From NCBI GenBank assembly GCA_934667275.1, contig CAKULK010000005.1:73167-137166 (forward strand): DNA of 64,000 nucleotides, in the 5' to 3' direction. A program made the position numbers and the translations under genes. Below are positions 6,482-62,822 of this stretch, in pieces. The notes below the pieces were generated by a model. It was not told the DNA's origin, made no database searches, and worked only from the letters and a program-made list of their open reading frames with translations. Origin of the DNA: an uncultured Bacteroidales bacterium. GTDB taxonomy: Bacteria > Bacteroidota > Bacteroidia > Bacteroidales > Paludibacteraceae. Every line of letters begins with the position of its first letter. Position 1 is the first letter of the stretch.

Positions 6482-6482
6482 A

Positions 6483-6743: not shown

Positions 6744-6797
6744 TTCTCCTTTCTTGCGGCAAAGTTACTTATTTTCTGTGACATACACAAATATTAC

Positions 6798-29038: not shown

Positions 29039-29488
29039 ATGCGAATAGCGATTATCAACGGACCAAACCTAAACCTGCTGGGACGGCGGGAGCCTACTAT
29101 ATATGGCATCCGCTCAATGGAGCAGGTGATGGTGGATTTGCAGCACACATACACCTATATATATATGGAGTATCGCCAATCAAACCACGAGGGAGACCTG
29201 ATAGACTGGGTACAAGAGTTTGGCGGCATGAAAACATCGCTGAATACAGAGCCTTTTGACGGTATTATCCTCAACGCAGGCGGCTATACGCATACGAGTG
29301 TGGCATTGCGCGATGCAGTAGCCTGTGCCATGGTGCCTGTGGTGGAAGTGCATATCTCCGACATCAGCCAACGCGAAGCGTTTCGTCGCGTAAGTCTGCT
29401 AAACGATGTGTGTGCACACACCATAACAGGGCATGGTACTGAAGGATATCGCGAGGCCATAGAATGGCTCATCGGTCACCATAAATGA
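29039..29488 (+). CDS. aroQ: Type II 3-dehydroquinate dehydratase
   Basis: 'MRIAIINGPNLNLLGRREPTIYG' and 'HISDISQRE' are type II DHQase signatures. 149 aa. Confidence 0.9.
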   Translation: MRIAIINGPNLNLLGRREPTIYGIRSMEQVMVDLQHTYTYIYMEYRQSNHEGDLIDWVQEFGGMKTSLNTEPFDGIILNAGGYTHTSVALRDAVACAMVPVVEVHISDISQREAFRRVSLLNDVCAHTITGHGTEGYREAIEWLIGHHK

Positions 29489-36600: not shown

Positions 36601-37085
36601 TTGACGAAAATGCCAAGCATACCTATGTACTCAACGACTATTTCACCGCCCAAAACAATAGTTATCAGCAAGGGCGTGTCAGTTACAAGATGCCCGAAAT
36701 GGACGAGGGAACCCATAGTCTGACATTCCGTGCGTGGGATTTGCTCAACAATAGCAGCACCGCCACACTTAATTTTCATGTGGTCAAAGGCATGGATCCG
36801 CAGATTTTCCAAGTGCTCACCTACCCCAACCCTGTTTCGGCATCGGAAATCATGAACATCCGCATTGAGTATGATCGCCCCGATGAAATCATACAAACAT
36901 CTGTTTATCTGTATGATATAAGCGGTCATCTACTGTCGGTTACCGAGCAAAAAGGTGCCGATAATCTCCAATGGAATATCAGCGAATTGGGTATGCACGC
37001 AGGCGTGTATATATATCAGGTCAAAATCAAGACACAGACCTCCAACTATGTCTCCAAAGCAGGAAAAATAATCGTTTCACAATAA
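33675..37085 (+). CDS. porU: Type IX secretion system sortase PorU (C25-family cysteine peptidase, retains own CTD)
   Basis: 1136 aa with signal peptide. Gingipain-like catalytic dyad context 'YSGHGGY' (His) and 'WFLATCSFSHFDSG' (Cys). C-terminal T9SS sorting domain 'LTYPNPVSASEIMNIRIEY...GVYIYQVKIK'. Followed by porV. Confidence 0.8.
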   Translation: MQNQMKRLTIILLALSLALGSWAGIHSYADHSALREGRIIKIRISETGIYCLPYDTLKAWGLKPEQVRVLGYGGVMLSENFKEHHWDDLPTVSIYMHKGADGVFGSGDYILFYAQGVVGWNYGNGRWKHTNNPYSRYGYYFVSDTAGEQKLVSTTNALSEENVQNVEWFTDYRVYEKDSINLIDRSGVSGGGREFYDRPLQGPTQSLNISFDTHNVLTDRPMSCLIDLAASATQASTFRATLCGTTNTVSVKNISVSDFYTKAECDSILLTTTAQSSGSQSVNIQFSNAASGAVGFLNYIELNAPCALTMYGNTMAISNTEFFGQSVNTRFLLSNATTSTQIWKVTDGVNIEQMPTQVVDGKLAWIGSNARAEKYVAVNVNASNWKQPQRVGVVANQDLHALQNIDYVIICPEEFVPQATRLAQKHEEIDNLTWAVVTDQQVYNEFSSGTPDVTAYRWLMKMLYDRANGNKIQEPKSLLLMGKASFDNRNLLTTSGTGRLLVYQAHNSTIETKAYGCDDYCGFLADNAGIESNGRFNDVRAQMNIGVGRLPVTTATQATEVVEKLCTYMDNQVLGKWKTQICFLADDGDHGLHVRTADNGAEKMRKKNLDFIVNKIYLDAYTQEVSAAGESYPLAKNQFDNLMSNGVLFMDYSGHGGYNNITNEMFMSAKDIQQMNNTNQGFWFLATCSFSHFDSGITSAGEWAVLNPNGGAIGVLSACRTVYASQNEVFNRNLCDTLFGHKDPFSYNMTLGEATRIAKNTTGRDENKMPYILLGDPALRLNYPTQYQVRTIGQPDTLHALTVQTIRGYIETPDHDTATWFNGTLDITVFDKMQQITTRDNDETDENKKQKIIYNDYPNTLFAGQTNIIDGKFEFTFMVPKDIRYNYGNGRIVYYAYDNEARAEGVGHYEDFIIGGSSSITIPDTMGPDIRLYLNNIAFANGGDTHEFPHFYADIYDDHGINTVGTGIGHDLLLIIDENAKHTYVLNDYFTAQNNSYQQGRVSYKMPEMDEGTHSLTFRAWDLLNNSSTATLNFHVVKGMDPQIFQVLTYPNPVSASEIMNIRIEYDRPDEIIQTSVYLYDISGHLLSVTEQKGADNLQWNISELGMHAGVYIYQVKIKTQTSNYVSKAGKIIVSQ

Positions 37086-37172: not shown

Positions 37173-38372
37173 ATGAAAAAAGTCTTTTTATCCATCATGG
37201 CAATAGCCGGTCTCAGCCTGCCGTTGTTGGCCACCAATCCGGTCATCACAGCCATGCCTTCTCTCAGTGTTGCCCCGGATGCTCACGCCGCAGGTTTGGG
37301 TGATGTCGGCGCAGCCACAACTCCTGATTTGAACTCCCAACACTGGAACCCCGCCAAATATGCTTTCATGGAGAGCCGAGGAGGTATCACCGCCAACTAC
37401 ACTCCTTGGTTGCGCAAGTTGGTGAGTGACATTGATTTGGCATATCTTGCAGGTTACTACAAAATCAACGATATGCAGGCTATCTCAGCCAGTTTCAGTT
37501 ATTTCTCCATGGGTGCCGTCCAATTGGTTGACTATAGCGGCACGGCTTTCCAGGAAGCGCATCCAAATGAATGGTCTCTTGATGCTGCCTACTCCATCAA
37601 ACTGCACGAGTATGTCAGTATGGCGGTAGCACTCCGTTTCCTCTATAGCGACCTCAACAATGGTACCAACGCCTCTGTCACTACGGGTTCCACGGAATTG
37701 CGCCCGGCATGGACAATGGCGGCCGACATTGCGCTCTACTACAAGCAGCCTATCGCACTCCCGATGGGCGATAGTTATTTCGGACTCGGTTTCAACCTCA
37801 GCAACCTCGGCGGCAAGATGTCCTATGACAACGGCGATACCAAGAACTTCATCCCTGCCAATATGCGCTTGGGTATCAGTTACGAGTTGCCTTTCGACAA
37901 CTATAATCGCCTTATGGCTACCGTTGAGGCTAACAAAATGCTCGTGCCTACCTACTATTCCAAATTTGCCGAAGACACCGACAACCATCGTATGACGCAA
38001 ACCGAATACTCCAACACAACCTCTCCTGATGGCTGGTGGAAGTCGTTCTGCGATGCTCCGGGCTACACCACCGATGAAGGCAAAGTTGTCAGCCCTGCAT
38101 TGGAGGAGTTGCAGGAGATTCAATGGGGCGTAGGTCTTGAATATAGTTACAATCGCCAGTTCTTCGGGCGCGTTGGCTATAGCCACGAAAACTACTACAA
38201 AGGCAACCGCCGCTATGTGACCATCGGTGCTGGTTTCAAACTCAGTATCTTCTCTTTGGATGTTGCCTACTGCATTGCCACGGCAGCCTCCAACCCGCTC
38301 GACCAGACCATGCGTTTTACGCTCGGTTTCGACCTCGCAGGTATCAAAGACCTCGTCAACAACAAGAAATAA
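37173..38372 (+). CDS. porV: Type IX secretion system outer-membrane shuttle protein PorV (LptO)
   Basis: 399-aa signal-peptide beta-barrel protein immediately downstream of porU, matching the conserved porU-porV pairing. FadL-like N-terminal 'AMPSLSVAPDAHAAGLGDVGAATTPD'. Confidence 0.8.
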   Translation: MKKVFLSIMAIAGLSLPLLATNPVITAMPSLSVAPDAHAAGLGDVGAATTPDLNSQHWNPAKYAFMESRGGITANYTPWLRKLVSDIDLAYLAGYYKINDMQAISASFSYFSMGAVQLVDYSGTAFQEAHPNEWSLDAAYSIKLHEYVSMAVALRFLYSDLNNGTNASVTTGSTELRPAWTMAADIALYYKQPIALPMGDSYFGLGFNLSNLGGKMSYDNGDTKNFIPANMRLGISYELPFDNYNRLMATVEANKMLVPTYYSKFAEDTDNHRMTQTEYSNTTSPDGWWKSFCDAPGYTTDEGKVVSPALEELQEIQWGVGLEYSYNRQFFGRVGYSHENYYKGNRRYVTIGAGFKLSIFSLDVAYCIATAASNPLDQTMRFTLGFDLAGIKDLVNNKK

Positions 38373-43748: not shown

Positions 43749-46172
43749 ATGCACACTCTTCTTCTCGCCATCTCCACTCTGCTCACCTCGTGGCAGTTCG
43801 CCTTCGAGCAGACCGACCATCAGATGCCCGCACCCGCCGACAAGGCTTGGCAGCAGGTCACCATCCCCCACGACTGGGCGATATACGGACCATTCGACCG
43901 CCAGAACGACCTGCAGAACGTCACCGTCTGGCAGAACGGCGAGACCTTCCCCTCGCTCAAAACGGGGCGCACGGGCGGTCTCCCCTACATGGGCACCGCG
44001 TGGTACACCACGCACATCGCCCCGCTCACCGCGCCTTCCGACACCGCCACGCAGCGTTACACCCTGCTCTTCGACGGTGCCATGAATGAAGCCGAGGTCT
44101 ATGTCAACGGGCAGAAAGCCGGCTATTGGCCCTACGGCTACAACGCCTTCCACTGCGACATCACGCCCTACCTCCACACCGACGCGCCCAACCTCATCGC
44201 TGTCCGCCTCTGCAACCGCGAGCAGAGCAGCCGCTGGTACCCAGGCGCAGGGCTCTACCGCAACGTGCACCTCATCACCTCGCCGCGCACCCACGTACCC
44301 GTATGGGGCACCCACATCACCACCCCCTACGTCACCGACCGGTTGGCATCCGTCAACCTCCGCACCCGCGTGGACAACGCCCTCGGCAGGCATATCACCC
44401 TCCGCACCACCCTCATCTGCAAAGCCACGGGCGAGGCTGTTGACTCCCTCACCAGCGACTACGACATCCGCCACAACCTCCCGCTCGAGCAGAACTTCAC
44501 CCTCCCCACCCCGCTCCTCTGGTCGCCCGAGACGCCCCACCTCTACGAGGCGCGCACCTCGCTCTACGCCGATAGCGAATGGCAGGAGGATATCATCACC
44601 ACCTTTGGCATTCGCAACGTGCAAATCGTCCCCAACGTGGGTTTCATGCTCAATGGCAAGGTGCGTAAGTTCCAAGGTGTCTGCCTGCACCACGACCTTG
44701 GTCCCCTCGGTGCCGCCGTCAGCCACGATGCCATCCGACGCCAACTGCTTCTGCTGCGCGACATGGGCTGCGACGCCATCCGCACCTCCCATAACATGCC
44801 CGCGCCCGAACTCATCGAACTGTGCGACTCCATGGGCTTCATGGTCATGTGCGAACCCTTCGACGAATGGGACTGGGGCAAGTGCGACAACGGCTACAGC
44901 CGTTTCTTCAACGAATGGGCGGAGCGCGACATGGTGAATATGCTCCACCATTTCCGCAACAACCCGAGCATCGTGATGTGGTCGGTCGGCAACGAAGTCC
45001 CCACCCAATGCGACCCGCAGGGCTATCGCGTGGCGAAGATGCTGCAGGACATCTGCATGCGCGAAGACGGCACGCGCCCTGTCACCGCAGGCATGGACCA
45101 AGTCTCCTGCGTGCTTGAAAACGGCTTCGCGAGCATCCTTCAGGTGGTCGGACTCAACTACCGCCCGCACTGCTATGAGGAGGCGTACCGGCGCACCCCG
45201 CAGCGTCTCGTCCTCGGCAGCGAGACGGCGTCCACCGTCTCCTCGCGCGGCGTCTATCTGCTCCCCGCCCTGCCCGACAACACCGAGACCATCACCAACA
45301 TCGACCACCCGGGCGGCAACAGCCGCACCAACCAGAGTTCTTCCTACGACCTCCAATACTGCCCGTGGAGCAACCTGCCCGATGACGATTTCCGCAACAT
45401 GGACGACTATCCTTGGACCATCGGTCAGTTTGTCTGGACGGGCTTCGACTACCTCGGCGAGCCCTCACCCTACGACACCGATGCTTGGCCCAGCCACTCC
45501 TCCTACTTCGGCATCATCGACCTCGCGGGCATTCCCAAGGACCGCTACTACCTCTACCGCGCCCGGTGGAACACGCGCGACCACACCACCCACCTGCTCC
45601 CCCACTGGAACTGGCACGCGGGCGACACCGTACCCGTTATGGCGTACACCGATGCCGACGAGGGCGAACTCTTCCTCAACGGCATCAGTCTCGGCAAGCG
45701 CACCAAACTCACCCGCGAGCAGGCTCAGGCGGCTGCCGCCAAAGGCGACCCGCTGGCTCTGCAACGCCGCTACCGCCTTATCTGGGACAGCATACCTTGG
45801 CAATCGGGCGAACTGCGTATCGTAACACCCTACGGCGAGGATGTCCGCCGCACCGCCGGCAAACCTCACCACATCGAGATGTACCTCGAGCCGCTCACCA
45901 ACGCCGCTGACAACACCTTACATTTCGTACGCGTGCGCGTGTGCGACGCCGATGGCAACCTCTGCCCCGATGCCGACCAACTCATCCGCTTCGCCACCCG
46001 CGGCACAGGTCGCTTCCGCGCCGCTGCCAACGGCGATGCAGCCAACCTCGACCTCTTCCACCTCCCGCAACACCACGCCTTCTCGGGTGAACTCACTGCC
46101 ATCATCGAAGGCAGTTGCACCCTCACGGCTACCGCCAAAGGATTAAAATCTGCTAAACTCATCATCAACTGA
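43749..46172 (+). CDS. GH2 beta-galactosidase
   Basis: 807 aa. 'WQQVTIPHDWAI' sugar-binding N-terminus, 'NHPSIVMWSVGNE' (acid/base Glu) and 'CEPFDEWDW'. Partners the GH53 galactanase. Confidence 0.85.
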   Translation: MHTLLLAISTLLTSWQFAFEQTDHQMPAPADKAWQQVTIPHDWAIYGPFDRQNDLQNVTVWQNGETFPSLKTGRTGGLPYMGTAWYTTHIAPLTAPSDTATQRYTLLFDGAMNEAEVYVNGQKAGYWPYGYNAFHCDITPYLHTDAPNLIAVRLCNREQSSRWYPGAGLYRNVHLITSPRTHVPVWGTHITTPYVTDRLASVNLRTRVDNALGRHITLRTTLICKATGEAVDSLTSDYDIRHNLPLEQNFTLPTPLLWSPETPHLYEARTSLYADSEWQEDIITTFGIRNVQIVPNVGFMLNGKVRKFQGVCLHHDLGPLGAAVSHDAIRRQLLLLRDMGCDAIRTSHNMPAPELIELCDSMGFMVMCEPFDEWDWGKCDNGYSRFFNEWAERDMVNMLHHFRNNPSIVMWSVGNEVPTQCDPQGYRVAKMLQDICMREDGTRPVTAGMDQVSCVLENGFASILQVVGLNYRPHCYEEAYRRTPQRLVLGSETASTVSSRGVYLLPALPDNTETITNIDHPGGNSRTNQSSSYDLQYCPWSNLPDDDFRNMDDYPWTIGQFVWTGFDYLGEPSPYDTDAWPSHSSYFGIIDLAGIPKDRYYLYRARWNTRDHTTHLLPHWNWHAGDTVPVMAYTDADEGELFLNGISLGKRTKLTREQAQAAAAKGDPLALQRRYRLIWDSIPWQSGELRIVTPYGEDVRRTAGKPHHIEMYLEPLTNAADNTLHFVRVRVCDADGNLCPDADQLIRFATRGTGRFRAAANGDAANLDLFHLPQHHAFSGELTAIIEGSCTLTATAKGLKSAKLIIN

Positions 46173-50471: not shown

Positions 50472-51329
50472 TCATAGGTTCCCCCACACTGTCGGCCACG
50501 TATTCTTTGTAATCCCCGCCATCTCGGTCATCTGAACATGTGCGGTCTCCCTGAGCCGTGCCACCTCATCTTTTCTCGGTTGCGTGGTATCGGGGAAGAT
50601 AGGCTCGCCGATAGTCACCGTCAGCAGCGGCAAATCTTTCGGACCGAACAACCGGCATATACCCTTTCGCTCTCTGTAGGTTATCACGCACGGCAACAAT
50701 GGCATGTTGTAGCGGTAACTCATTGTAAACGCTCCCTTTTGGAAGGGTCGCAGCGGCTTGTACATATCCCATCGGCAACTCTCAGGAAAGATATGGAACC
50801 ACCATCCGCGCCGGTGGAACTCGTCAAAGGCTTCGTTGAATTTCTTCTGCGCACTCATTCCAGCACTCGGTTCGGGAATCGGAATACCCCCTACCACACG
50901 GAGAAAGAAACTGTCTTTGGTCCTGAAGTTAGGCGCGAACATAGGGATGCGCGTCGTACACTTTGCCTTCACGGCAACTAACACACACGGGCAATCCAAT
51001 CGGAACATATGGTTGGCTATCGTTATCGCACCGCCCTGCAACTCTTTCTTGTACTTCTTCAGTACCTCGCGCCCGCGGATACGCAACCCCATCTTTACTC
51101 GCAGGAACACACCCAGACACCTGTGCAGTATCACCCTGTAAGCCCACCAGTGGTTAAAGCGCGTCAATGGTCGGTCGTCCAAATACGGATAGTTCTCGTC
51201 TATTGTCATCTCTCGGTCCTGCGGCGCATTCACAAGGTGCAGGTACGGGTCATCTTCGGGATAATCCATCTGTGGCTTCGGCACATATACGCCTTCTGCC
51301 ACTTTCAGGTCTTCATATCGTTTGTTCAT
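50472..51329 (-). CDS. Lysophospholipid/1-acyl-glycerol-3-phosphate acyltransferase-family protein (HX4D motif)
   Basis: 'ITIANHMFRLDCPCVLV' carries the LPLAT H-x4-D catalytic motif. 285 aa. 4-bp overlap with the upstream GH3 gene. Confidence 0.7.
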   Translation of the reverse strand: MNKRYEDLKVAEGVYVPKPQMDYPEDDPYLHLVNAPQDREMTIDENYPYLDDRPLTRFNHWWAYRVILHRCLGVFLRVKMGLRIRGREVLKKYKKELQGGAITIANHMFRLDCPCVLVAVKAKCTTRIPMFAPNFRTKDSFFLRVVGGIPIPEPSAGMSAQKKFNEAFDEFHRRGWWFHIFPESCRWDMYKPLRPFQKGAFTMSYRYNMPLLPCVITYRERKGICRLFGPKDLPLLTVTIGEPIFPDTTQPRKDEVARLRETAHVQMTEMAGITKNTWPTVWGNL

Positions 51330-53389
51330 GCTTGTGCTTCCTTGTTCGTTTCTTCCGTTGTCGGTTGTGCTACCTGTGGAGTCTCCTCCGTTGCGGGTTG
51401 CTCTACCGGTTTGGGTTCTTCCGCCTTGGGCTGCGCCGTCTTTTGGGCTGCCATAGCAGTCTCTTGGGCTAACCGCTCGGCTTCCTCCGCAGCCTTCTGC
51501 TCTGCCTTCGCCTCTTTGTTCTCCTTGCGTTGGGCAGGGCTCGCGCTGTGAATCAGTTTGCCGGTCTTACGCTCCTGTTTCTGCTTCAGACGGCGTTGCT
51601 TGCGCTCACGCACAGCATCGTCAATCGCATTGGCTTGCTCCAATATCTGCGTAGAGATACGCTCTATCAGCGAGAACTTGTCCCTGCGCTTCTCGTCCTG
51701 CATCAGCAGGTTAAACTTGAACTGCCCGTCTCTGAACCCGTCGCGAAGGCTCGCAGCCTTGAACCGTGCGTATGCGTTGTTCAGCAATATATGAGTCTGA
51801 GGCTCATGCAGACGGAACGACGCCCTTTTGGCTTCGTATTCGATATTCATCTCGCAGAGTTTCTTGTCCACTACCTTGGTGAACGCATCGGCTTGCTCTT
51901 TGGTGATGTCGTCTTTCTCAAACTCATAGTAGAAGTGGTAGCAACTGTCCTGCACCTCGGCGAAGCCTACAAAGAACTTGGTCTTTATCCCTGTCTCTTT
52001 CTCAGCCTCATGTACGGCTTCTATGAACTGGGGCTCGTACAACTTCTCCCCTGTCATTGACACAATGCCGTTCACCTTCGATATCATGTGTACCGTAGGT
52101 GTGTTGTAGTATTTCCCGCCCACTTCCACAAGGTCGTTCATATTGTATCGGAACAGTCCCGAGTAGGTCGTTACATACGCGCAATACCTCTTGCCTTGTT
52201 CCAACTCGTCTATCTGAAGGAAGTGCTTGTTCGGACTGTCTAATTCGTCTTCGGCTACGAACTCGTAGTAATGGAACTGCGGGAACAGCACCGACTCGTT
52301 GCTGTCGTCTAATGCAAACCCGAAACGGCACTCCGTGGCGATATACCCTAACTCTTGGTAATAGGTCTTGTCCCAATCGAAGTCGTCCATATACTTCTCC
52401 ATGTATATCTTCGTATTGCCGCACTTCCATGTGCTCAGGTATTGCAACCACGGCCAGTAGTCTTTCGGCAGCAGTCGCCCTTTCTCGCGCAGTATCTTGC
52501 GCAACTCTTCCGCACGCTCCGGCTCGGGCTGCATATAGGCGTCTAATTCCTCGCGGATACGGTCCGATATGTCGAAGTTCATACTCAGCGTACCGTACTC
52601 GATGTCGTTTATCAGTTCTTCGGTATTCTCGTCCACGGTACGCATGAGTTCGAGGATAGTCGAAGGGTTGGCGGTGGACCATAGTGTCACATCCCTGTGC
52701 TGCATCGCCATACGCATCAGCGTATAGTTGCGCGCACCGTAGTCTGCTATCGACATCACGCACGCGGGAGCCGTGTAGTGTTTCTTGATAATCGCGGGTA
52801 TATCGCGCACCAATACACCACTCACGCTGCCGTACAGCGTACCGTCGGGTGCGTAACCCTCTACCTCCTTGCCCACTATCGGGAAAATATGTCCGGCGAA
52901 GATACGGTTTCGGTGTTTCACGAAGTTCCACGTCCAGATGTGCGACATCTTGCCATACACGTCTTTCAGATACTTGTGCGTCATCGGCACCCACTTGGGC
53001 TCACTCGTTGTGCCCGAGGTAGTGGCGTACATGTCCGGCTTACCCGGAAAGAGCACGTTCTCCTCACCGTTCTTGTGGCGTTCCACATACGGGCGCAATG
53101 TCTCGAAACTGTCATTCACAGGCACATACTTCCTGTACAGTCGGAACAGGTCATCTGCATTCGATGCCGACAGAATGATGTCGAAATGGTGTTCGCGCCC
53201 ATAGACGGTATCTCTCGAAATGTCGAGAATATCGCGCAACGTGCGTTCCGCAGCCTGACGCGGACGACGACTCCAGTACTTCAAACGCACTGTCTCACTA
53301 CCGCCTACCAAGAATAGCACGGTGTTAATCAACCACGGGTAAGGTAACGCCCTCCCCCCATTGTCTAAATACGGTTTCTTTTTTCCCAT
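51326..53389 (-). CDS. GH3 (auxin-responsive promoter) family acyl-adenylate-forming amido synthetase homolog with ~90-aa K/E/A-rich C-terminal tail
   Basis: 'YATTSGTTSEPKWVPMTHKYLKDVYG' is the GH3/ANL AMP-binding motif. The body matches bacterial GH3-family proteins. Start chosen at 'MGKKKPY' (53389) rather than the ORF-track start. Tail 'KEAKAEQKAAEEAERLAQETAMAAQK...'. Confidence 0.7.
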   Translation of the reverse strand: MGKKKPYLDNGGRALPYPWLINTVLFLVGGSETVRLKYWSRRPRQAAERTLRDILDISRDTVYGREHHFDIILSASNADDLFRLYRKYVPVNDSFETLRPYVERHKNGEENVLFPGKPDMYATTSGTTSEPKWVPMTHKYLKDVYGKMSHIWTWNFVKHRNRIFAGHIFPIVGKEVEGYAPDGTLYGSVSGVLVRDIPAIIKKHYTAPACVMSIADYGARNYTLMRMAMQHRDVTLWSTANPSTILELMRTVDENTEELINDIEYGTLSMNFDISDRIREELDAYMQPEPERAEELRKILREKGRLLPKDYWPWLQYLSTWKCGNTKIYMEKYMDDFDWDKTYYQELGYIATECRFGFALDDSNESVLFPQFHYYEFVAEDELDSPNKHFLQIDELEQGKRYCAYVTTYSGLFRYNMNDLVEVGGKYYNTPTVHMISKVNGIVSMTGEKLYEPQFIEAVHEAEKETGIKTKFFVGFAEVQDSCYHFYYEFEKDDITKEQADAFTKVVDKKLCEMNIEYEAKRASFRLHEPQTHILLNNAYARFKAASLRDGFRDGQFKFNLLMQDEKRRDKFSLIERISTQILEQANAIDDAVRERKQRRLKQKQERKTGKLIHSASPAQRKENKEAKAEQKAAEEAERLAQETAMAAQKTAQPKAEEPKPVEQPATEETPQVAQPTTEETNKEAQA

Positions 53390-53893
53390 AACAAAATTTT
53401 TCTTCCCTGTTCCCAAATCCCCTGCACACCCGCGACAGACCCGCGATGGACTCATAACGTAGTCTGCACGTACCGCACATGCTTGTACACGGAATGTGCC
53501 ACCTCCGTATTCCCCTTGCGAACAAGGACATTCAACTATTCCTCTCCTTCTTATCCATCCCACATCGGCACCTGTACCTTTCTCAAGGAACCACCAATAC
53601 CGCCCGCAAAATTACTGATTTTATTTGGAATATGCAAATCCGCCCCTATTCACCCGCAAAAATACCACTATAAATCGTACATCATAATTTCGCAAATCGT
53701 AAATTCGTAAATGAATTAATGGTTAATTCGTGGTAATTAATGTTCCATTTCATTAGTTGTTGGCGAATGTTTTTTGCACACAAAGACGGCTTTATGGCAA
53801 TTTCACGCCGTTTTTACCCCTATTGATTATCAACACCTTACAAAGAAAATGCAAAAATAATGCTAAAAATTTGGATTTTGAACGATTTTGTAT

Positions 53894-54293: not shown

Positions 54294-57200
54294 ATGAAAA
54301 AACATTTTTCTCTTTTCATTCTCTTATTCTGTTGCCTGCCATTCTTTGCACAAAGCAGCAACAACGAAGACGAAGTGGTCAAAATCGACCGCATCAACTA
54401 TGGTGCCTACCGTGATGGCGAAGTAATCGTCAAGTTCAAAGACGATTGTTCTGCCGTCATGCGTGCCCCGCGCCGTGCGCGTTTCTCGTCGGCACAGGCA
54501 ACTGCTGTGGACCAACTCTTTGCCACCCTTGGCGTGGATTCCGTAGAGGAACTGATGCCACGGACAGGCGCGCGTCCTATGCCCCGCCGTATCAAAGCCT
54601 ACAGCGGCAAGGACGTAGAGCCCAAGAACCTCCACAAACTCTATCGTATCACCTTGAGCGAACAGGCACGCCAGCAGCGCAGCATCCATGAGGTAGTCAG
54701 CCAACTCCAAGCCCTTGATGAGGTGGAGTATGCCGAGCCAAACTACCTTGTCTATGCCATGTCCACCACAGATAGAGGCGATGCCGTCACGTATATGTCC
54801 GAACCTCTCTATAGCCAGCAATGGGGATATGCTGCCATCAATCTCCCCTATCTGTGGAACCTGCCCAAGGTGCGCACCAAACGCCCTGTGATTGCCATAT
54901 TGGACACGGGCGTGGATATAGAGCACCCCGACCTCGCAGCCAATATCTGGACGAATGAGAAAGAGGCAACCGGTGTTGAGGGGCAAGACGATGATAGAAA
55001 TGGTTTCAAAGACGATATCCACGGTTGGGACTTTGTCAACCAGCGCAGCAAAATTGCCGACTACAACGGACATGGCACCCACTGCGCAGGTATTGCTGCC
55101 GCCGTAGGCGATAACGGTATCGGTATCACGGGTGCCAACCCCGACGCACTCATTATGCCGGTAGTCGTTATGCAGGCAGATGGTACAGGCGATGTTGCTA
55201 CAATCATCAAGGGTATTGATTATGCTGCTGCCAATGGTGCTGATGTCATCTCTATGTCCTTTGGCGGCTATGGTTACTCGCTTGCTGAGGAGCAAGCACT
55301 GGGACGTGCGTATGCAACGGCAGTCTTGGTCGCTGCTGCGGGAAATGACTATAAGTGTATTATGCCGCACGACTGCCCCGTCAATCACAAGAGCGCAATG
55401 GAAAATGGTCCGATGTTCCCTGCTGCATTTACTTTTGTCTTAGGCGTGGAGGCTTCTTCTCAATTAGGCTTGGCAAGTTTCAGCAATTTCGATGAAGATG
55501 GTCCTATATATTCCACTTTCGGTGAAGAAAAACTCTACAACTACGAACTGCGTGCACCGGGTGTCGGTATTGTGAGCACGTTTCCGGGTGGGCGATACAA
55601 GAAACTGAATGGTACATCTATGGCATGCCCGATGGTGGCAGGTGCTGTCAGTCGCCTGCTGCAAGTCAAGACAGACTCTGCTTTGGTGAGCAAAGAAGTG
55701 CTCTTTGGCGACCTTATCCATAGCCGATCGGGCTGGTTCGGCAACATCAATATGAAGACGGTGTACAACTACTCGGATGCGAACCGCAAACCGACATTGT
55801 ATCTCATAGGTCAAGAAATGCAAGACACCATTGTAGGTGATGGGGATAGCGAATATGATGTAGGGGAGACCATCGAATTTTACCCTATCCTGCGCAACGA
55901 TTGGGGAACGGCAAAGAATATCCGCTTTTGGATGTGCACGGGGCAATATACGGATGGTGTATGGGTAATGGGCGACACCGCACAAATTCACTATCTGACC
56001 GATACGGTTTCTTTTGGCAAGCCGCTGAGTAGTTACGCTAAAAACAAATCACTCAACCCGATACGCTTCTCTATCAACTCCAATTGTGCAGATGGGGTAC
56101 ATATCCCGCTCACATTCTATGCTGTATGTGATAATATGACTGACACACTCCGCCGGACATTTACCATCACTGTCAATAATGGCGTGGAAATTGGTGGTAT
56201 GCTAACAGAAGATATGACGTTATATCCGCAAGTACATTATGTTGTCACCAAAAGATTAGCAATTCCTAAAAATGTGACATTAACGCTTTCCCCAGGAACC
56301 ACTCTGAAATTTAAAGATAACACTGGACTGACAATAGAGGGACATCTAATTGCCCAAGGCACCCCTGATAGTACAATAACATTTACAAAAGCGGATAATG
56401 CTTTGGGTACAATATCAGAATTTTCTCTTTATGGTGATGGTGACACCCTCAAGTATTGTATATTCGAAAGATTATCTGCCCAAGGGTATCTCCTAATGAT
56501 GTATCGTCACAAATACTACCTTGAAAATTGTTGCATTAGAAATAATGCTACTGATTTCATTATTACTGATAATACTAATTCTGGAACATGTGTAGTAAAA
56601 ACAAATCTATACAACAACCTCACGCACCGAACACTTTGTGTCCCCACAGTACACTGTTCCAATATTGTCAATAACCACGCTACATCTAAATCATATTGTT
56701 CAGGTCTCGTTGCAGATAAACTAAATATCCAAGTTACAAACAATAATGTATTTTCAAATACTGCACCAGATGGGCAGATACAAAATTTTCACTCTAACGA
56801 TAACGCTTCCATCATTTGGGATGCCCCTCAATATTGGGGAAGTAATAATGAGACCATAATTCGAGAAGGTATTTGGGATATTAATCACCCAATAGGGACA
56901 TTTGATTGTTCCTGGCATTACGACATAACAAAGCGCTTGCACCGCCCAAGTTCAGAAGCCCATGGTATTGTTTGGAAAGTGGTCGTTGACGGCTACGATG
57001 CACAAGATGAGTTTGAGCAGTTGCCACCAATTGGCGTAGGCACACATACCTGTCAAGTATATTTCAATCGTGCGATGGATACCCTTATCACGCCTTTAGT
57101 GTCCTACGGTGTTCGCCCACCCTACACGCAGCACGCTATCACGGGAGGCTCTTGGTCTGCCGATTCCACTATTTACACAGCCAACTTTACCATTGATGCC

Positions 57201-58271
57201 AAAACAGCCTCCGATGGTCTCAACCGTTTCTATGTCGCCGACGCACAAGATAACGAACATTTCGAAGTTCCGATAGAGAATGTTCGTTTCAATATGCAGA
57301 TAGAGGCGGCAGGCTCTATGTCAACAGGTCTCATGGCAGAGGCAGGCTTGGGAAAGGTCACCCTCAGTTGGGAAACTGACGAGGAAGACTTTGCCGACCT
57401 CTTGGGCTACAATATCTATCGTTGGACAGGTGATACTATATGGACCAACTCGCAGCATACACAGTTCCGTATAGACACCATTCAAGTTAATGAATCGCTG
57501 ATAGATTCCGAAGAGCAGAATTTTGTGGACTACAACGTTACCCCGGGCAAACCCTACTACTACATCATCAAGCAAATCACTACCTCACTCAACCAATACA
57601 ACCTCTCCAATCCCGTTGTGGCAACTCCGCTGACTTCTATCAAGGGAGATGCCAACGGCTCTATGTCTGTGGATGTGGCGGATGTGATTACCGAGGTGAA
57701 CTACATCGCTCGTCAGAACCCGCAACCGTTTATCTTCGAGGCAGCCGATGTCAATTCGGATAATACGATTGATATTCTTGATGTGGTGGGGACGATTAAC
57801 CTCATTCTGCATCCTGAGAACAAGTCGCAAGCTGTAAATAGCGGTTCGGCTACGTATTATATAGAGAATGGCATTCTCTATGTGGATGCCGATGTGGCGT
57901 TGGGCGGTGTACAATTTACGTTGGCTACCGATTCGGCGACAGCCACTATCACCCCGTTGGATGCCCTCTCGCAGTTTGAGAAAGTGTCGCAATGGAACAA
58001 TTCCGAGGAGTACTTCTTTATGGCATATTCTATGTCGGGCAAGACCATCGGTGTCGGCGAAACTGCCCTTATGCAAGTGGGCAATGCGGATATTTCGTCT
58101 ATCGTGCTTTCCGACACACAGGGGCATAATGTGAAGGCTGCGCCGCGTATCTCTACCCGCCTTGATGGAACCACCTTTATGCCGAACACCGAAAAGTATA
58201 TCCAAGACGGCAGTCTCTACATCCGTATGGGCGAACATATCTACAACGCTCTCGGGCAACAAGTACGATGA
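54294..58271 (+). CDS. Secreted S8 subtilase-family serine peptidase carrying FN3-like module and a C-terminal-region type-I-like dockerin; no T9SS CTD
   Basis: Signal peptide. Catalytic triad blocks 'AILDTGVD' (Asp), 'HGTHCAGIAAAVG' (His) and 'GTSMACPMVAGAV' (Ser). FN3-like 'GKVTLSWETDEEDFADLLGYNIYRW'. Dockerin duplicated Ca-binding repeats 'DANGSMSVDVADVITEVNYIA' and 'DVNSDNTIDILDVVGTINLIL' at nt 57648-57809. Confidence 0.85.
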   Translation: MKKHFSLFILLFCCLPFFAQSSNNEDEVVKIDRINYGAYRDGEVIVKFKDDCSAVMRAPRRARFSSAQATAVDQLFATLGVDSVEELMPRTGARPMPRRIKAYSGKDVEPKNLHKLYRITLSEQARQQRSIHEVVSQLQALDEVEYAEPNYLVYAMSTTDRGDAVTYMSEPLYSQQWGYAAINLPYLWNLPKVRTKRPVIAILDTGVDIEHPDLAANIWTNEKEATGVEGQDDDRNGFKDDIHGWDFVNQRSKIADYNGHGTHCAGIAAAVGDNGIGITGANPDALIMPVVVMQADGTGDVATIIKGIDYAAANGADVISMSFGGYGYSLAEEQALGRAYATAVLVAAAGNDYKCIMPHDCPVNHKSAMENGPMFPAAFTFVLGVEASSQLGLASFSNFDEDGPIYSTFGEEKLYNYELRAPGVGIVSTFPGGRYKKLNGTSMACPMVAGAVSRLLQVKTDSALVSKEVLFGDLIHSRSGWFGNINMKTVYNYSDANRKPTLYLIGQEMQDTIVGDGDSEYDVGETIEFYPILRNDWGTAKNIRFWMCTGQYTDGVWVMGDTAQIHYLTDTVSFGKPLSSYAKNKSLNPIRFSINSNCADGVHIPLTFYAVCDNMTDTLRRTFTITVNNGVEIGGMLTEDMTLYPQVHYVVTKRLAIPKNVTLTLSPGTTLKFKDNTGLTIEGHLIAQGTPDSTITFTKADNALGTISEFSLYGDGDTLKYCIFERLSAQGYLLMMYRHKYYLENCCIRNNATDFIITDNTNSGTCVVKTNLYNNLTHRTLCVPTVHCSNIVNNHATSKSYCSGLVADKLNIQVTNNNVFSNTAPDGQIQNFHSNDNASIIWDAPQYWGSNNETIIREGIWDINHPIGTFDCSWHYDITKRLHRPSSEAHGIVWKVVVDGYDAQDEFEQLPPIGVGTHTCQVYFNRAMDTLITPLVSYGVRPPYTQHAITGGSWSADSTIYTANFTIDAKTASDGLNRFYVADAQDNEHFEVPIENVRFNMQIEAAGSMSTGLMAEAGLGKVTLSWETDEEDFADLLGYNIYRWTGDTIWTNSQHTQFRIDTIQVNESLIDSEEQNFVDYNVTPGKPYYYIIKQITTSLNQYNLSNPVVATPLTSIKGDANGSMSVDVADVITEVNYIARQNPQPFIFEAADVNSDNTIDILDVVGTINLILHPENKSQAVNSGSATYYIENGILYVDADVALGGVQFTLATDSATATITPLDALSQFEKVSQWNNSEEYFFMAYSMSGKTIGVGETALMQVGNADISSIVLSDTQGHNVKAAPRISTRLDGTTFMPNTEKYIQDGSLYIRMGEHIYNALGQQVR
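57648..57809 (+). other. Dockerin module (two 21-22-aa EF-hand-like repeats with 12-aa linker) inside the S8 protease
   Basis: The D-x-N-x-D/S-x-x-I/V-D-x-x-D-x-x-x-x-x-N-x-I pattern is repeated twice. Read directly from the translation. Confidence 0.7.
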
Positions 58272-60421
58272 TGAAACGTTGTATTTTGTTCTTTTTGACT
58301 ATTGCTTCGCTGACTGTGTCGGCAGGCAATAGTCTTTCACTGCCCGCATTGTCAGGCAAGCCTGGCGATACACTCTCTGTATCGGTGCAATTCGAGTGTA
58401 CCGATGCCGTTACGGCTATGGAGATAGCCTTGCCCCTCAGCCCGTATATTCAGTATGTCGGCACCTCTGCCATGCTCAATGCAGCCCGTGCCAACGGACA
58501 CACGCTCTACGCCCAATCGGTACGCGACACCCTCTTTGTGCAGATATATAGTCTTTCGCTCTCGGCATTGCAAGGGCAATCAGGCGAATTGTTTTCTTTC
58601 CGCCTTGCGTTGCGCAACGAGCCCCAAGTGCTGGCATTGCTGCCGCGTGTCTTGGCGGTTAATGCACAAGGGCAACGCTTGCCTGTATCGGTAGTACCTG
58701 GTCAAATCACCACTTTGGCACCCAAAATCGCTATTCTGACACCGACGATTGACTATGGGCATCACCCCATTCGTCAGACTTATACACAAACCCTGTCGGT
58801 ACGCAATATCGGCACCTCGCCACTGACGATATACTCGCTCTCTTTGCCCGCCGACCTGTTTGCCTACGACGGCAAGGCACATACTATTGCCGCAGGTGCT
58901 ACTGCTGACATCCCCATTCGTTATGCACCCGTTCTGCGAGGTGCATACAGCGGAACTGTTAAGATACACTCCGATGCCACCAATGCAGCCTTGCGTGTGA
59001 ACTCCGAAGTGGCTGTCATCGCAGACCCGTTCTCGGTGAACGAACTGCACATCGGTTCGGCTTCGGGTATTGCGGATAGTTTGGTTACCATTCCGCTCAC
59101 AATGAATAATATGGAACCTATTGTGGCCATGCAATGTGCTTTCCGTTTGCCGCAGGAGTTGCTTTTTGAAGCGGGCAGTTTCAGTGTTAATGCCAATCGA
59201 ACCAACGGACATACAGCCTTATCTTCGGTACATGGCGACACGCTCTCGCTCTATATCTATTCGCCAACCAATCAGCCTTTACTGGCAAACGATGGTGAGG
59301 TGGCGTCTTTCCGTCTCCGCCTCAATGGCAACTCGGGCACCTACTACCTCACGCCCATAGATGTCATTCTCAGCAATGCCACTTCCGAGAACATGGTATC
59401 TGCCACCTCACGGGGTTCCGTGCGTATTCAGAGCCCGCGTTTGTCTTGTGGTAATAGTATCACTTTTGCCGATGCTGCCATTACAGATGTTGTGCACGCT
59501 ACTTTCTCCCTGCGTAATAACGGCGATGCACCGCTTGTCATAGAGCGTGCCACTTTCTTGGCAGAAGGTTTTTCCATCGTGGAACCATTACCTGTATCTG
59601 TTGCGGCAAGACAGAGTACTTCTCTTACCATTGCCTATCAGCCCAAGGCTGAAGGGGACTTCTCCACCATGATGAATCTCTATACCAACGACCCTACGGC
59701 ACGCCTGAAGTCCATTGCTCTTTCGGGGCATATCTATGAGCCGAACAGCCTTTCCGTAGAGGGGCAGAGTAGGCAGGGAGACGATGCTTACACGCTGTCG
59801 GTGTCGCTCTCCAACTATACCGACATTGTGGCGGCGCAGTTTGATGTACACTGGATAGGCACTATGGCTACGTCGCAAGCGCAATGTACTCCCTCTCCAC
59901 GTTTGCAACAACACAACTATTCGGTCAGTCGTATAGGAGATTCCGACTACCGTGTATTGATGTACTCTATGGCGAATACACCCATCAGCGGACACGATGG
60001 TGAACTGCTCCGGCTCCTCTTCACCCCGCAAGAGAGCGGCACTGCAGACTATTGTGGCACCACTCTCACTATCGACAATATCGTCCTCAGCAATGCCCGT
60101 GGCGAAAACAAGCAGTCCCTATCCCCTATCACCTACCGCATTGAGCAACCTTGTATTCCTACTGCTCTCAATACTCACGTGGTCAATCCGTACACTTTGT
60201 ACCCAAACCCTGCGACAGATATGGTATATCTTTGTGGGAATGATATTGCCTCTTTCCGTGTCTTTTCTTCGGCAGGCAGTCTTGTGTACGACACCCGACT
60301 TACAGGGAGCCAAACCGAACACGCGATAGATGTCCACAAATTGGCGGCAGGAGTGTATATGGTTGTAGTGTACGATACCCATCACACCGCACACACCACC
60401 ACCTTTATCAAGTCCGAATAA
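58268..60421 (+). CDS. T9SS-cargo scaffoldin-like protein: three cohesin-like modules alternating with Ig-like (DUF1573-type) domains, plus type-A T9SS C-terminal sorting domain
   Basis: Signal peptide. Three modules with cohesin signature blocks: 'GDTLSVSVQFE...AMEIALPLSPYIQYVG...GELFSFRLALRN', 'ADSLVTIPLTMNN...AMQCAFRLPQELLFEAG...GEVASFRLRLNG' and 'AYTLSVSLSNY...AAQFDVHW...GELLRLLFTPQ'. C-terminal domain 'LYPNPATDMVYL...GVYMVVVYD...FIKSE'. ATGA start/stop overlap with the protease gene. Confidence 0.7.
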   Translation: MMKRCILFFLTIASLTVSAGNSLSLPALSGKPGDTLSVSVQFECTDAVTAMEIALPLSPYIQYVGTSAMLNAARANGHTLYAQSVRDTLFVQIYSLSLSALQGQSGELFSFRLALRNEPQVLALLPRVLAVNAQGQRLPVSVVPGQITTLAPKIAILTPTIDYGHHPIRQTYTQTLSVRNIGTSPLTIYSLSLPADLFAYDGKAHTIAAGATADIPIRYAPVLRGAYSGTVKIHSDATNAALRVNSEVAVIADPFSVNELHIGSASGIADSLVTIPLTMNNMEPIVAMQCAFRLPQELLFEAGSFSVNANRTNGHTALSSVHGDTLSLYIYSPTNQPLLANDGEVASFRLRLNGNSGTYYLTPIDVILSNATSENMVSATSRGSVRIQSPRLSCGNSITFADAAITDVVHATFSLRNNGDAPLVIERATFLAEGFSIVEPLPVSVAARQSTSLTIAYQPKAEGDFSTMMNLYTNDPTARLKSIALSGHIYEPNSLSVEGQSRQGDDAYTLSVSLSNYTDIVAAQFDVHWIGTMATSQAQCTPSPRLQQHNYSVSRIGDSDYRVLMYSMANTPISGHDGELLRLLFTPQESGTADYCGTTLTIDNIVLSNARGENKQSLSPITYRIEQPCIPTALNTHVVNPYTLYPNPATDMVYLCGNDIASFRVFSSAGSLVYDTRLTGSQTEHAIDVHKLAAGVYMVVVYDTHHTAHTTTFIKSE

Positions 60422-60496: not shown

Positions 60497-60706
60497 ATGA
60501 AGGAAATCTTGATAACAATAGGTCTGGTGGCACTTGCGGTGGTGCTTTTGTGCGTGCGCATACTGCTCCGTAAGGGCGGGAAGTTCAGCAGCCAGCATAT
60601 CTCCGAGAACAAGAAGATGCGCGAAAATGGCATTCATTGTGCCACCTCGCAGGACCGCGAGGCACGTCGTGACGCACGCAAAAAGATGAACGTAAATGAG
60701 TTGTAG
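60497..60706 (+). CDS. Small single-pass membrane protein (69 aa)
   Basis: 'ILITIGLVALAVVLLCVRILL' TM helix followed by a basic tail. Has a dedicated promoter-like box. 11-bp overlap with the next gene's ORF. Confidence 0.45.
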   Translation: MKEILITIGLVALAVVLLCVRILLRKGGKFSSQHISENKKMRENGIHCATSQDREARRDARKKMNVNEL

Positions 60707-60728
60707 CACCTCCCCTACCCCGGCACCA

Positions 60729-62822
60729 ATGCCCATACATATTTGCCGCTATATTGTCCGCCAAAGCACACCACACGGATGGTGCAATCGGCTGTTTTTC
60801 ATTGTATTGTGTATGGCTTTCGGCTGTCTGATGCAGTCGTGCAGTCTGTCAGCCCGTCTCAAGAAAGCGGACAAGAAATACGCCATCGGCGAGTACTACG
60901 AGGCAGGGGATATGTACAAGAACCTCTACGCCAAGGTGCCACAAAAGCAGAAGCCCTTGCGCGGCGAAGTGGCATTCAAGCAGGGGGAGTGTATGCGCAT
61001 ACTCAACAACCCACGTGCCGCTGCCGCCTACAAGAACGCCATCAAGAACCACTATCCCGACTCCGTCGTCTATCTCCACTACGCCCAAGTGCTGCAGTAC
61101 CAGGGCAAGTACCGCGAGGCGGCGCAGCAGTACGAGATATACCTCCAAGCCCACCCCGACGACTATGTGGCACAGGCGGGACGCTATGCCTGCGCCCAAG
61201 TGGAGACATGGCGCAAGCAACCCACGCGCTACAAGGTGGCACCCGCGAAAGAGTTTAACCAGAAGCGGACATCCAACTTCGCACCCTCTTTTATCACGGA
61301 AGACGGTGATGCACTCGTCTTCACGTCCAACCGCCAGCAGCAGAAGACCAACAAAAAGAAGACCCGCAACTCGCCCGTAACGGGTATGGCGACCTACAAC
61401 CTCTACTCCGCGCGCAAGAACGCAGCGGGACAGTGGGAGGACATCGCCCTCTGCGAGGGGTTGTACGAGGAAGACGCTTCCGCAGAAGGCGAAGGTGAGG
61501 AAGGCGGCACGCAGAAAAAGACAGGCTCTGCCGAACTCGGCGTATGTTGTTTCTCGCCCGACGGCAAGACGATGTACTTCACCTACTCATGTCCCGTCAA
61601 CGGGCAGGACTTAGGTGCCAAAATCTACACCTCCACACGTGCCAGCGGTGAGTGGGGCGAGGCGCAGGAACTCAAGTTGTTCAGCGACAGCAGTACCACA
61701 GTCGGGCACCCCGCTCTCAATGCCACGGGTGACACACTCTATTTCGTCAGCGATGCCCCGGGCGGCTTTGGCGGCAAAGACATCTACATGGCAGTGCAGG
61801 ACGGCGGCGGGTGGACCGATATTCAGAACCTCGGACCACAAATCAACACCGCAGACGATGAGTTGTTTCCTTATGTGCGTGCTGACGGACGGCTCTATTT
61901 CTCCTCCAAGGGGCACCCCGGATACGGCGGACTTGACCTTTTCTATGCCGAGCGCACCGACACCGCATGGATGATTTTCAATATGGGCACGCCCTTCAAC
62001 AGCCAATACGATGACTTCGGCATCGCCTTTGCAGGGGCTACCGAAAACGGCTTTTTCTCGTCCAACCGCGGGCAGAAGAAGGGCTACGATCTTATCTATT
62101 CGTTCACGCTGCCCGAGATGGTGTTCACCGTAGAGGGCAAAGTGACGGACACGCAGGGCGAACACCTGTCGGAGGCTACCATACGTCTGGTGGGCGACGA
62201 CGGCACCAATGTCAAGACGCAGATACGCCGCGACGGTACCTACCGCCTGCGCCTACAGAAGGATACCCGCTATGTCATGCTCGCCACCGCACGCGGCTAT
62301 CTCAACGAGAAGCAGCAACTCACCACGGCGGGGCTGACCGACAGCCGTACTTATGAGCAGGACTTCACGCTGGCACCCGTTTCCAAGCCCGTGAAGATGG
62401 ACAATATCTTCTTCGAGTTCGGCAAATGGGACCTGACACCCGACTCCGAAGGCGGGCTGAACGGACTTATCCGACTGCTGAACGACAACCCGAATATCAC
62501 CATCGAACTCGCGGCGCACACCGATATGGTGGGCAACGACAAGGACAACAAAGTGCTGTCCGAGAAACGTGCACAGTCTGTAGTCAACTACCTGATACAG
62601 CATGGCATCGAGTCGGAACGCCTGACTCCTGTGGGCTATGGCGAGGAGAAGCCCGTTGTGGTGGACGAGGTATTGCACAAGCAGTACCCGTATCTGCCTG
62701 TTGACCAGACATTGGACGAGGCATTCATCACTACCCTGCCCGCCGACCAACAGCAGGTCTGCAACTCCCTCAACCGCCGCACCGAGTTCCGCGTGCTGAA
62801 AACAACGTATAAATTGTATTAG
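60729..62822 (+). CDS. OmpA-family lipoprotein with TPR and TolB-like (PD40) beta-propeller repeats
   Basis: Lipobox 'MAFGCLMQSCS'. TPR-like N-terminus. PD40-type repeats ('DGKTMYFT', 'GDTLYFVSD', 'DGRLYFSS'). C-terminal OmpA domain 'NIFFEFGKWDL...ITIELAAHTDMVGNDKDNKVLSEKRAQSVVNYL'. Start placed at 'MPIHICRY'. Confidence 0.7.
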   Translation: MPIHICRYIVRQSTPHGWCNRLFFIVLCMAFGCLMQSCSLSARLKKADKKYAIGEYYEAGDMYKNLYAKVPQKQKPLRGEVAFKQGECMRILNNPRAAAAYKNAIKNHYPDSVVYLHYAQVLQYQGKYREAAQQYEIYLQAHPDDYVAQAGRYACAQVETWRKQPTRYKVAPAKEFNQKRTSNFAPSFITEDGDALVFTSNRQQQKTNKKKTRNSPVTGMATYNLYSARKNAAGQWEDIALCEGLYEEDASAEGEGEEGGTQKKTGSAELGVCCFSPDGKTMYFTYSCPVNGQDLGAKIYTSTRASGEWGEAQELKLFSDSSTTVGHPALNATGDTLYFVSDAPGGFGGKDIYMAVQDGGGWTDIQNLGPQINTADDELFPYVRADGRLYFSSKGHPGYGGLDLFYAERTDTAWMIFNMGTPFNSQYDDFGIAFAGATENGFFSSNRGQKKGYDLIYSFTLPEMVFTVEGKVTDTQGEHLSEATIRLVGDDGTNVKTQIRRDGTYRLRLQKDTRYVMLATARGYLNEKQQLTTAGLTDSRTYEQDFTLAPVSKPVKMDNIFFEFGKWDLTPDSEGGLNGLIRLLNDNPNITIELAAHTDMVGNDKDNKVLSEKRAQSVVNYLIQHGIESERLTPVGYGEEKPVVVDEVLHKQYPYLPVDQTLDEAFITTLPADQQQVCNSLNRRTEFRVLKTTYKLY

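Follow-up and report, generated by a model that had tools for sequence, protein, structure and literature searches.

The subject of this analysis is the C-terminus of an S8-family serine protease encoded in a 64-kb stretch of contig CAKULK010000005.1 (the window, meaning all 64,000 nucleotides analyzed) from an uncultured member of the Bacteroidales, family Paludibacteraceae. The protease bears a dockerin, and its gene is followed directly by that of a scaffoldin with cohesin-like modules. Although it lacks every catalogued C-terminal domain (CTD) of type IX secretion system (T9SS) cargo that we searched for, it ends in a short tag that recurs, strictly C-terminally, on many unrelated secreted families and that replaces a type-A CTD in orthologous proteins. 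The open reading frames (ORFs) and domains of the gene pair are as follows, with structure predictions made using AlphaFold2 (AF2) and confidence given as pLDDT, the predicted local distance difference test score.

54294..58271, plus strand: S8 serine protease ORF, 1325 residues, with signal peptide, pro-domain, S8 domain, long middle region, dockerin, cohesin-like domain and C-terminal tag
54294..54350, plus strand: predicted Sec/signal peptidase I (SPI) signal peptide MKKHFSLFILLFCCLPFFA, followed by Gln, assigned by inspection with a putative cleavage site
54879..55679, plus strand: Peptidase_S8 catalytic domain, residues 196-462 (PF00082, 153 bits, E = 1e-44)
57642..57791, plus strand: type I dockerin, residues 1117-1166, with two DxNxD-type loops (Dockerin_1, PF00404)
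57846..58145, plus strand: cohesin-like β-domain of ~100 residues, residues ~1185-1284 (AF2, Foldseek and BLAST)
58149..58268, plus strand: C-terminal tag module, the last 40 residues ISTRLDGTTFMPNTEKYIQDGSLYIRMGEHIYNALGQQVR, made up of pre-motif (LDGT), linker and core
58191..58268, plus strand: tag core of 26 residues EKYIQDGSLYIRMGEHIYNALGQQVR, a predicted three-stranded antiparallel mini-sheet at the C-terminus (AF2, pLDDT 89-96)
58268..60421, plus strand: scaffoldin, 717 residues, whose start codon overlaps the stop of the protease gene; it carries a type-A CTD besides three cohesin-like modules and two choice-of-anchor-D Ig domains
60197..60412, plus strand: type-A T9SS CTD of the scaffoldin, residues 644-715 (TIGR04183, 34.6 bits against a cut-off of 23; PF18962, 38.9 bits)

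The segment singled out by the initial annotation, 57648..58271, comprises the last 207 codons and the stop of the protease ORF, and the protein ending quoted there, '...YIQDGSLYIRMGEHIYNALGQQVR', agrees with the translation. The Sec signal peptide proposed at the same time is also borne out, by inspection only, since the N-terminus, MKKHFSLFILLFCCLPFFA followed by QS, resembles a Sec/SPI signal peptide. Pfam analysis revealed a Fervidolysin-type pro-domain, and the catalytic motifs DTGVD, HGTHCAG and GTSMACP are readable in the translation, providing the Asp/His/Ser triad of S8 peptidases. The dockerin passes its Pfam cut-off by a narrow margin (23.6 versus 22.9 bits) and is modeled with low AF2 confidence; its duplicated Ca-binding loops, DANGSMSVDVAD and DVNSDNTIDILD, were read from the translation.

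Beyond the dockerin, AF2 modeling of the 207-residue C-terminal segment yielded pLDDT values of 80-95 throughout. A Foldseek search of the PDB placed cohesins (2w1n, 2jh2 and 6kgc) on top for the post-dockerin domain, with E-values of 7e-5 to 1e-3 and TM-scores of 0.3-0.5, and BLAST matched the domain to cohesin 3 of the neighboring scaffoldin (E = 5e-4), while no Pfam family, cohesin PF00963 included, matched it. The region had been described as a β-sandwich-like stretch of ~150 residues; this holds for the ~100-residue cohesin-like domain, the remainder being a linker and a terminal mini-sheet of 26 residues. A dockerin and a module homologous to scaffoldin cohesin 3 therefore reside on one protease, a layout shared by CTD-bearing relatives, so the enzyme could bind further dockerin proteins or self-associate.

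Two in-frame TGA codons end the protease gene, the first of which overlaps the ATG of the scaffoldin gene (ATGATGA), and the scaffoldin start is followed by a signal peptide of its own. Because of this double stop and overlap, and because the same tail ends 100 of the 120 closest homologs, we regard the stop as real. A frameshift or pseudogene origin of the tail was considered and ruled out on the same grounds, namely the double TGA, the overlapping start with its signal peptide and the 100 homologs that share the tail.

The tail reads …LDGTTF…KYIQDGSLYIRMGEHIYNALGQQVR and is followed by TGA TGA. Across carriers, the tag core has the consensus TKILRNGQIxILRGDKTYTxxGQEVK, and the fuller consensus is ...P-T-[AG]-I-E-N-V...(about 10 residues)...T-K-I-L-R-N-G-Q-I-x-I-L-R-G-D-K-T-Y-T-x-x-G-Q-E-V-[KR]. 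When the last 40 residues were modeled in isolation with an alignment of 60 sequences, AF2 predicted the last 30 residues at pLDDT 89-96 as three antiparallel strands (EKYIQD, SLYIRM and HIYN), with low confidence for the upstream linker. A Foldseek search of this isolated mini-domain against the PDB returned nothing below E = 1. Some 80 carrier tails (P0068-P0209) share a second conserved element, [PS]-T-[AG]-[IVL]-[ED]-[ND], located 14-20 residues upstream of the conserved Lys. Its version in the window protease is T-R-L-D-G-T, where AF2 confidence is low, and this pre-core element might be a site of processing or contribute an additional strand.

We searched the protease for catalogued sorting signals using the whole protein, its last 207, 160 and 45-50 residues, and three canonical tails. 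Neither type-A models (TIGR04183/PF18962) nor type-B models (TIGR04131/PF13585) nor other sorting-domain models in Pfam and NCBIfam matched the protease even at E ≤ 10, whereas the positive controls, namely the window scaffoldin (34.6 bits), PorU and the CTDs of relatives, matched type-A models. No NCBIfam type-C (ChiA-like) match was obtained for the tails at E ≤ 10 or for 73 tag-bearing proteins described below, the presence of a type-C model in that library being unconfirmed. Fragmentary matches of the tails to Reprolysin_5, DUF357, DUF1344 and GrdH at E ≤ 10 were set aside as chance, and no model in either library covers the tag in the protease tail, the canonical tails or the carriers. 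Nor does the protease gene adjoin a porP/sprF-like partner, being followed by the scaffoldin and then by porE. The initial annotation was thus right that a type-A or type-B CTD is absent and that known models leave the export route without an explanation, and the type-B CTD that it had offered as an option found no match in the TIGR04131 comparison. Its broader statement, that no outer-membrane translocation signal is present at all, stands for catalogued CTDs but not for the last ~26-45 residues, which recur as a module at strictly C-terminal positions and exchange with the type-A CTD in orthologs. On the basis of this recurrence and swapping, the tail can be considered a candidate signal, and the protease need not be signal-less.

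Recurrence was assessed with profile hidden Markov models (HMMs). In six-frame ORFs of the window and 33 related Bacteroidales loci (numbered L001 onwards), a local tag HMM gave 19 matches of at least 29 bits, all of them 0-10 residues from a stop codon, the next best score being 9 bits. The window tail scores 50.9 bits at the exact C-terminus with the mixed tag HMM. Many scaffoldin endings resemble the protease tail (e.g. SKILRDGQIFILRGEKVYTLQGQEVK), and the two sets align without gaps when counted from the C-terminus. Carriers recovered despite their absence from HMM training included the scaffoldins of L010 and L015, a 127-residue protein of L006 and one protein of L005, namely:

L005 1847..36, minus strand: secreted endonuclease-I-like protein of 604 residues (NREHSIPKSWWGG...NRNPFIDYPYLAEYIWG) with the tag at its C-terminus

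The gene of this last protein lies ~5 kb upstream of the L005 protease gene, on the opposite strand. An HMM built solely from 82 non-S8 tails matched the window tail flush with the stop codon, at 17.4 bits (E = 1.4e-4 in a set of 2636 ORFs), and recovered seven of seven S8 tails at the exact C-terminus, all above noise. As judged from these profile comparisons, the tail of the window protease is therefore a divergent copy of the recurrent C-terminal module.

When 1.84e9 cluster representatives were searched exhaustively with hmmsearch, 12,223 matched at E ≤ 1e-3, 880 of them at E ≤ 1e-10. Full-length carriers became visible only through this exhaustive search; a search with a 44-residue alignment gave short fragments only. 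Among the 142 best matches, the tag is exactly C-terminal in 108 and within 2 residues of the end in 134, and a signal-peptide-like N-terminus is present in 72 of the 88 long carriers. Pfam and NCBIfam scans of 73 carriers identified 54 BspA-type leucine-rich repeat (LRR) proteins (LRR_5), seven CBM26 proteins, four choice-of-anchor-J proteins, two M4 peptidases and one C10 peptidase, and not one of the 73 matched PF18962, PF13585, TIGR04183 or TIGR04131. S8 peptidases are likewise among the carriers, and the related loci add cohesin scaffoldins and a nuclease. These domains are typical of T9SS or extracellular cargo. No Pfam dockerin was found in thousands of tag-ended proteins. All tag-bearing genome loci and the few named database matches, on which our view of the taxonomic range rests, belong to Paludibacteraceae or unclassified Bacteroidales. 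A search of the accessible literature, with subscription-only papers outside its reach and a prior description therefore possible, found no account of the tag or of the protease-scaffoldin system; given its absence from curated family models as well, the tag is probably uncatalogued.

The relatives of the protease show what the tag replaces. Scanning one genome per species yielded the 33 loci, all encoding a protease with the same dockerin and cohesin-like end (~1300-1400 residues when the gene is complete on its contig). In 27 of the 33 the protein runs straight into a CTD, with TIGR04183 scores of 30 bits (L013), 44 bits (L021) and 25.1 bits (L016) for those sampled, and in the other six (L001-L006, rumen metagenome-assembled genomes of Paludibacteraceae/Bacteroidales) it ends like the window protein. 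The swap point lies directly after the cohesin-like module (…LSDTQGHNV…). Among the 120 closest S8 homologs (55-83% identity), the short tail runs exactly to the stop in 100, a CTD is present in 19 and one protein is truncated; retention of the tail down to ~55% identity indicates that it is no accident of truncation. In a neighbor-joining tree built without the C-terminus, the window protease falls beside the CTD-bearing L032, and both lie beside the tailed clade of L001-L006, so the C-terminal element has evidently changed more than once.

The S8-scaffoldin gene pair is conserved across Bacteroidales, with scaffoldin cores that are 27-64% identical across the aligned residues 1-620. Because local HMMs derived from protease CTDs missed the scaffoldin CTDs, the latter were assigned by an NCBIfam check on ten C-termini instead. 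All four combinations of tag and CTD are found in orthologous pairs:

Window and L035-37: protease with tag, scaffoldin with type-A CTD
L001, L002, L004 and L005: protease with tag, scaffoldin with tag
L011, L013, L014 and L017: protease with type-A CTD, scaffoldin with tag
L008, L009, L018, L025, L026, L029 and L032: protease with type-A CTD, scaffoldin with type-A CTD (the scaffoldin matches of L009, L018 and L029 fall under the TIGR04183 cut-off)

This one-for-one exchange, together with mutual exclusivity and the strictly terminal position, is the principal argument that the tag may do the job of the CTD.

A secretion machinery that could read such a signal is encoded nearby:

29485..30249, plus strand: PorT/SprT (NF052311, 192 bits)
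33675..37085, plus strand: PorU, the T9SS sortase, a C25 peptidase with its own type-A CTD (NF033707, 1029 bits; Pfam C25 and Por_Secre_tail)
37173..38372, plus strand: PorV, the outer-membrane shuttle (NF033710, 439 bits)
60696..62822, plus strand: PorE, with TPR, β-propeller, CRD and OmpA_C domains (NF052230, 747 bits against a cut-off of 600; Pfam domains)

With these four components within the 64-kb window, and porE directly downstream of the protease-scaffoldin pair, the organism has a T9SS, and tag and type-A CTD occur in the same genome. The order protease-scaffoldin-porE, followed by thyA and folA, is kept in the human-gut relatives L035-L037, and a close relative of the window locus found in human-gut metagenomes has the same gene order and a protease of 83% identity.

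The tag shares with the type-A CTD (TIGR04183/PF18962) a location at the extreme C-terminus of Sec-exported cargo in a T9SS genome, an all-β character, a basic final residue, an identical position in orthologs and the same cargo classes (S8, C10 and M4 peptidases, BspA LRR proteins, nucleases and scaffoldins). It differs in size and architecture, as the type-A CTD spans 70-100 residues and forms a seven-strand sandwich, whereas the tag core has 26 residues (~45 with the pre-motif) and three strands according to AF2; motifs B, D and E of the CTD are missing from it. The possibility that the tag is a truncated type-A CTD arose because MAFFT aligned the tail with the first half of the relatives' CTDs and a likeness to motifs D/E was seen by eye; it was rejected, and with it any claim of homology to CTDs, when hhalign and an ungapped profile scan lent no support. 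Type-B (TIGR04131/PF13585) and ChiA type-C CTDs are alternative C-terminal T9SS signals unrelated to type A and so provide a precedent for several signal classes, but they are ~100 residues or longer, and type-B genes usually lie beside a porP-like gene, neither of which applies to the tag. By sequence and fold, then, the tag does not belong to CTD types A, B or C; its likeness to them lies in its position, its context and, presumably, its function. Secreted glycoside hydrolases of Fibrobacter succinogenes, an organism of the Fibrobacterota-Chlorobiota-Bacteroidota (FCB) group with T9SS-like genes, carry a basic C-terminal domain whose role in export or anchoring is unproven. As a lineage-specific short module at the C-terminus of many secreted enzymes it is reminiscent of the tag, from which it differs in sequence and composition.

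We consider it moderately likely that the protease ends in a compact sorting signal of ~26-45 residues that is read by the T9SS and stands in for the type-A CTD. Such a signal would run from a short acidic pre-motif through a linker into a 26-residue three-stranded β-meander ending in Val/Ile-Lys/Arg-COOH, and in the Paludibacteraceae-like lineage it would have taken over from the classical CTD of ~75 residues. In this scheme, Sec would carry the protease through the inner membrane, the protein would fold in the periplasm, and the tag would then take it over the outer membrane, most plausibly by way of the window-encoded T9SS (PorT, PorU, PorV and PorE). The dockerin would finally bind the cohesins of the co-transcribed scaffoldin, which, having a type-A CTD, should be attached to the surface by PorU; the tag itself may afterwards be cleaved, anchored or released. 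That a signal could be this short is made plausible by HBP35 of Porphyromonas gingivalis: in a review (PMC10202324), the last 22 residues of its type-A CTD are stated to suffice for secretion of green fluorescent protein, suggesting that ~20-25 C-terminal residues can hold T9SS targeting information. The HBP35 segment belongs to a canonical CTD (motifs D and E), whereas the tag is a separate, self-contained sequence family.

Several results weigh against a T9SS signal of this kind. In hhalign comparisons, the probability of a match was 0.3% for long CTDs and 7.7% for short CTDs, the latter over just 12 columns around motif D. When the profile was slid without gaps along the CTD, the tag did no better than shuffled tails (P = 0.42, 2000 column permutations). 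Cryo-EM shows the whole seven-stranded CTD buried in SprA/PorV (PMC10994853), so a three-stranded unit of 26 residues would have to bind differently. The S8 tails score modestly, at 10-20 bits, against the HMM of non-S8 tails. Moreover, the Foldseek alignments of the 207-residue model span 133-140 columns, and the tail may pack on the cohesin-like domain, in which case it could also have a structural role in this particular protease.

Other accounts of the tail must therefore be weighed against a T9SS-read tag. One of them, raised in the initial annotation, is piggy-back export, in which a protease without a signal of its own would be bound through its dockerin to the scaffoldin cohesins in the periplasm and exported by the type-A CTD of the scaffoldin. 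The T9SS moves folded proteins, the scaffoldins of the window and of L035-37 have a type-A CTD, and the genes are translationally coupled by an ATGA overlap, all of which would suit this route. We nevertheless judge it very unlikely, mainly because the pairs of L001, L002, L004 and L005, with both partners tagged, offer no CTD that could carry the protease. Thousands of proteins without a Pfam dockerin likewise end in the tag, the proteases of most relatives have a CTD of their own, which makes independent export the ancestral arrangement, and to our knowledge no piggy-back transport by the T9SS has been reported. Our best reading is that piggy-back export is neither needed nor sufficient. The periplasmic function suggested at the same time, or its variant in which the tail is a functionless remnant of a lost CTD, draws on the lack of a known outer-membrane signal in the protease and appears highly improbable: 100 homologs with identities as low as 55% keep the tail, invariably aligned with the stop, the dockerin has been retained in a gene adjoining that of a surface scaffoldin, and the same tag is found on typical extracellular cargo such as adhesin-like LRR proteins, CBM26 proteins and nucleases.

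The tag might instead serve an outer-membrane route other than the T9SS, or require a dedicated receptor or shuttle, as type-B CTDs need PorP-like partners. Its lack of likeness to any CTD class in sequence or fold, its size, far below that of the CTD enclosed by SprA/PorV (PMC10994853), and the coexistence of tag and CTD in one genome speak for this account, which we hold to be somewhat unlikely given that the kinds of cargo, and the way in which the tag takes the place of the type-A CTD one for one, indicate a shared destination. Furthermore, no other outer-membrane secretion system was seen within the window, and no conserved partner gene lies beside the tag-bearing genes there or in L034, where the neighbors of a tag-bearing LRR gene are housekeeping genes and include no porP/sprF-like gene. 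A role in surface retention, oligomerization or ligand binding, or as a structural cap, with export left to something else, would fit the confidently predicted mini-sheet and the possible packing on the cohesin-like domain. One would expect to meet such a module at internal positions or alongside a CTD in at least some proteins; the tag is terminal in 140 of 142 matches, and a CTD accompanies it in none of 73 carriers. What precedes the tag in most carriers is a variable, linker-like stretch and not a fixed domain, and the carriers would be left without any export signal, making this account unlikely in our view.

A broader proposal, which we put forward tentatively, is that the tag represents a previously unrecognized class of export or sorting signal. 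It would be a three-stranded unit of ~26 residues that folds by itself, has no relation to CTD types A, B and C and has displaced the classical CTD on thousands of cargo families in Paludibacteraceae-like Bacteroidales of the gut and rumen. Its reader might be a dedicated receptor or shuttle, an unseen binding mode of the T9SS translocon, or a T9SS-independent route.

T9SS cargo is now predicted almost wholly from type-A and type-B CTD models. Should the tag be a working signal, surveys would overlook at least 12,000 clusters (50% identity) of secreted proteins from abundant, poorly cultured rumen and gut Bacteroidales, mostly BspA-like adhesins but also proteases, starch-binding proteins, nucleases and cohesin scaffoldins. 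The structural picture in which SprA and PorV enclose a whole seven-stranded CTD would likewise be called into question by a signal of 26-45 residues, which could serve as a very small export tag in surface display. Ready-made constructs for testing the function of the tag are provided by the natural exchanges of tag and CTD in orthologous protease-scaffoldin pairs.

The gene pair itself recalls known cohesin-dockerin assemblies, both cellulosomes and non-cellulosomal systems such as that of Clostridium perfringens, in that a dockerin enzyme is encoded beside a multi-cohesin scaffoldin. Module 3 of the scaffoldin passes the cohesin model PF00963 (31.5 bits against a cut-off of 24.1), and modules 1-3 are mutually homologous. 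The window system differs from those assemblies in its Gram-negative host, in having a protease as the enzyme and a T9SS cargo protein as the scaffoldin, and in combining a dockerin with a cohesin-like module on the same protein. The orthologous scaffoldins of L019, L027 and L028 end in a dockerin-like sequence (e.g. ...AADMNNDGQINSVDLEILINQISNN) with neither CTD nor tag, which suggests hierarchical assembly onto another cohesin protein.

Protease C-termini from Prevotellaceae/Muribaculaceae (L016, L018, L020, L022, L024, L027 and L028) carry a shorter CTD variant of ~45-50 residues (...GIYTLTGVKVSG...LPAGVYIVDGKKVVK). Two such ends were compared with TIGR04183 (cut-off 23): the L016 protease scored 25.1 bits and the L012 end gave no match; the short-type end of the L018 scaffoldin scored 17.6 bits. 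In L018 and L024, the Prevotella-like protease-scaffoldin genes with T9SS CTDs lie on contigs assigned to Oscillospiraceae/Oscillibacter bins, probably through mis-binning. Elsewhere in the window, a minus-strand gene at 51326..53563 encodes a GH3-family (acyl-adenylate-forming, JAR1-like) protein with a long C-terminal extension of low complexity, rich in Lys, Glu, Ala and Pro (...KAEQKAAEEAERLAQETAMAAQKTAQPKAEEPKPVEQPATEETPQ...). Relative to the window average of ~0.50, GC content drops to 0.37 at 6001..8000, around a minus-strand ORF at 6798..7892, and rises to 0.63 at 44001..46000, within a GH2 gene at 43749..46172.

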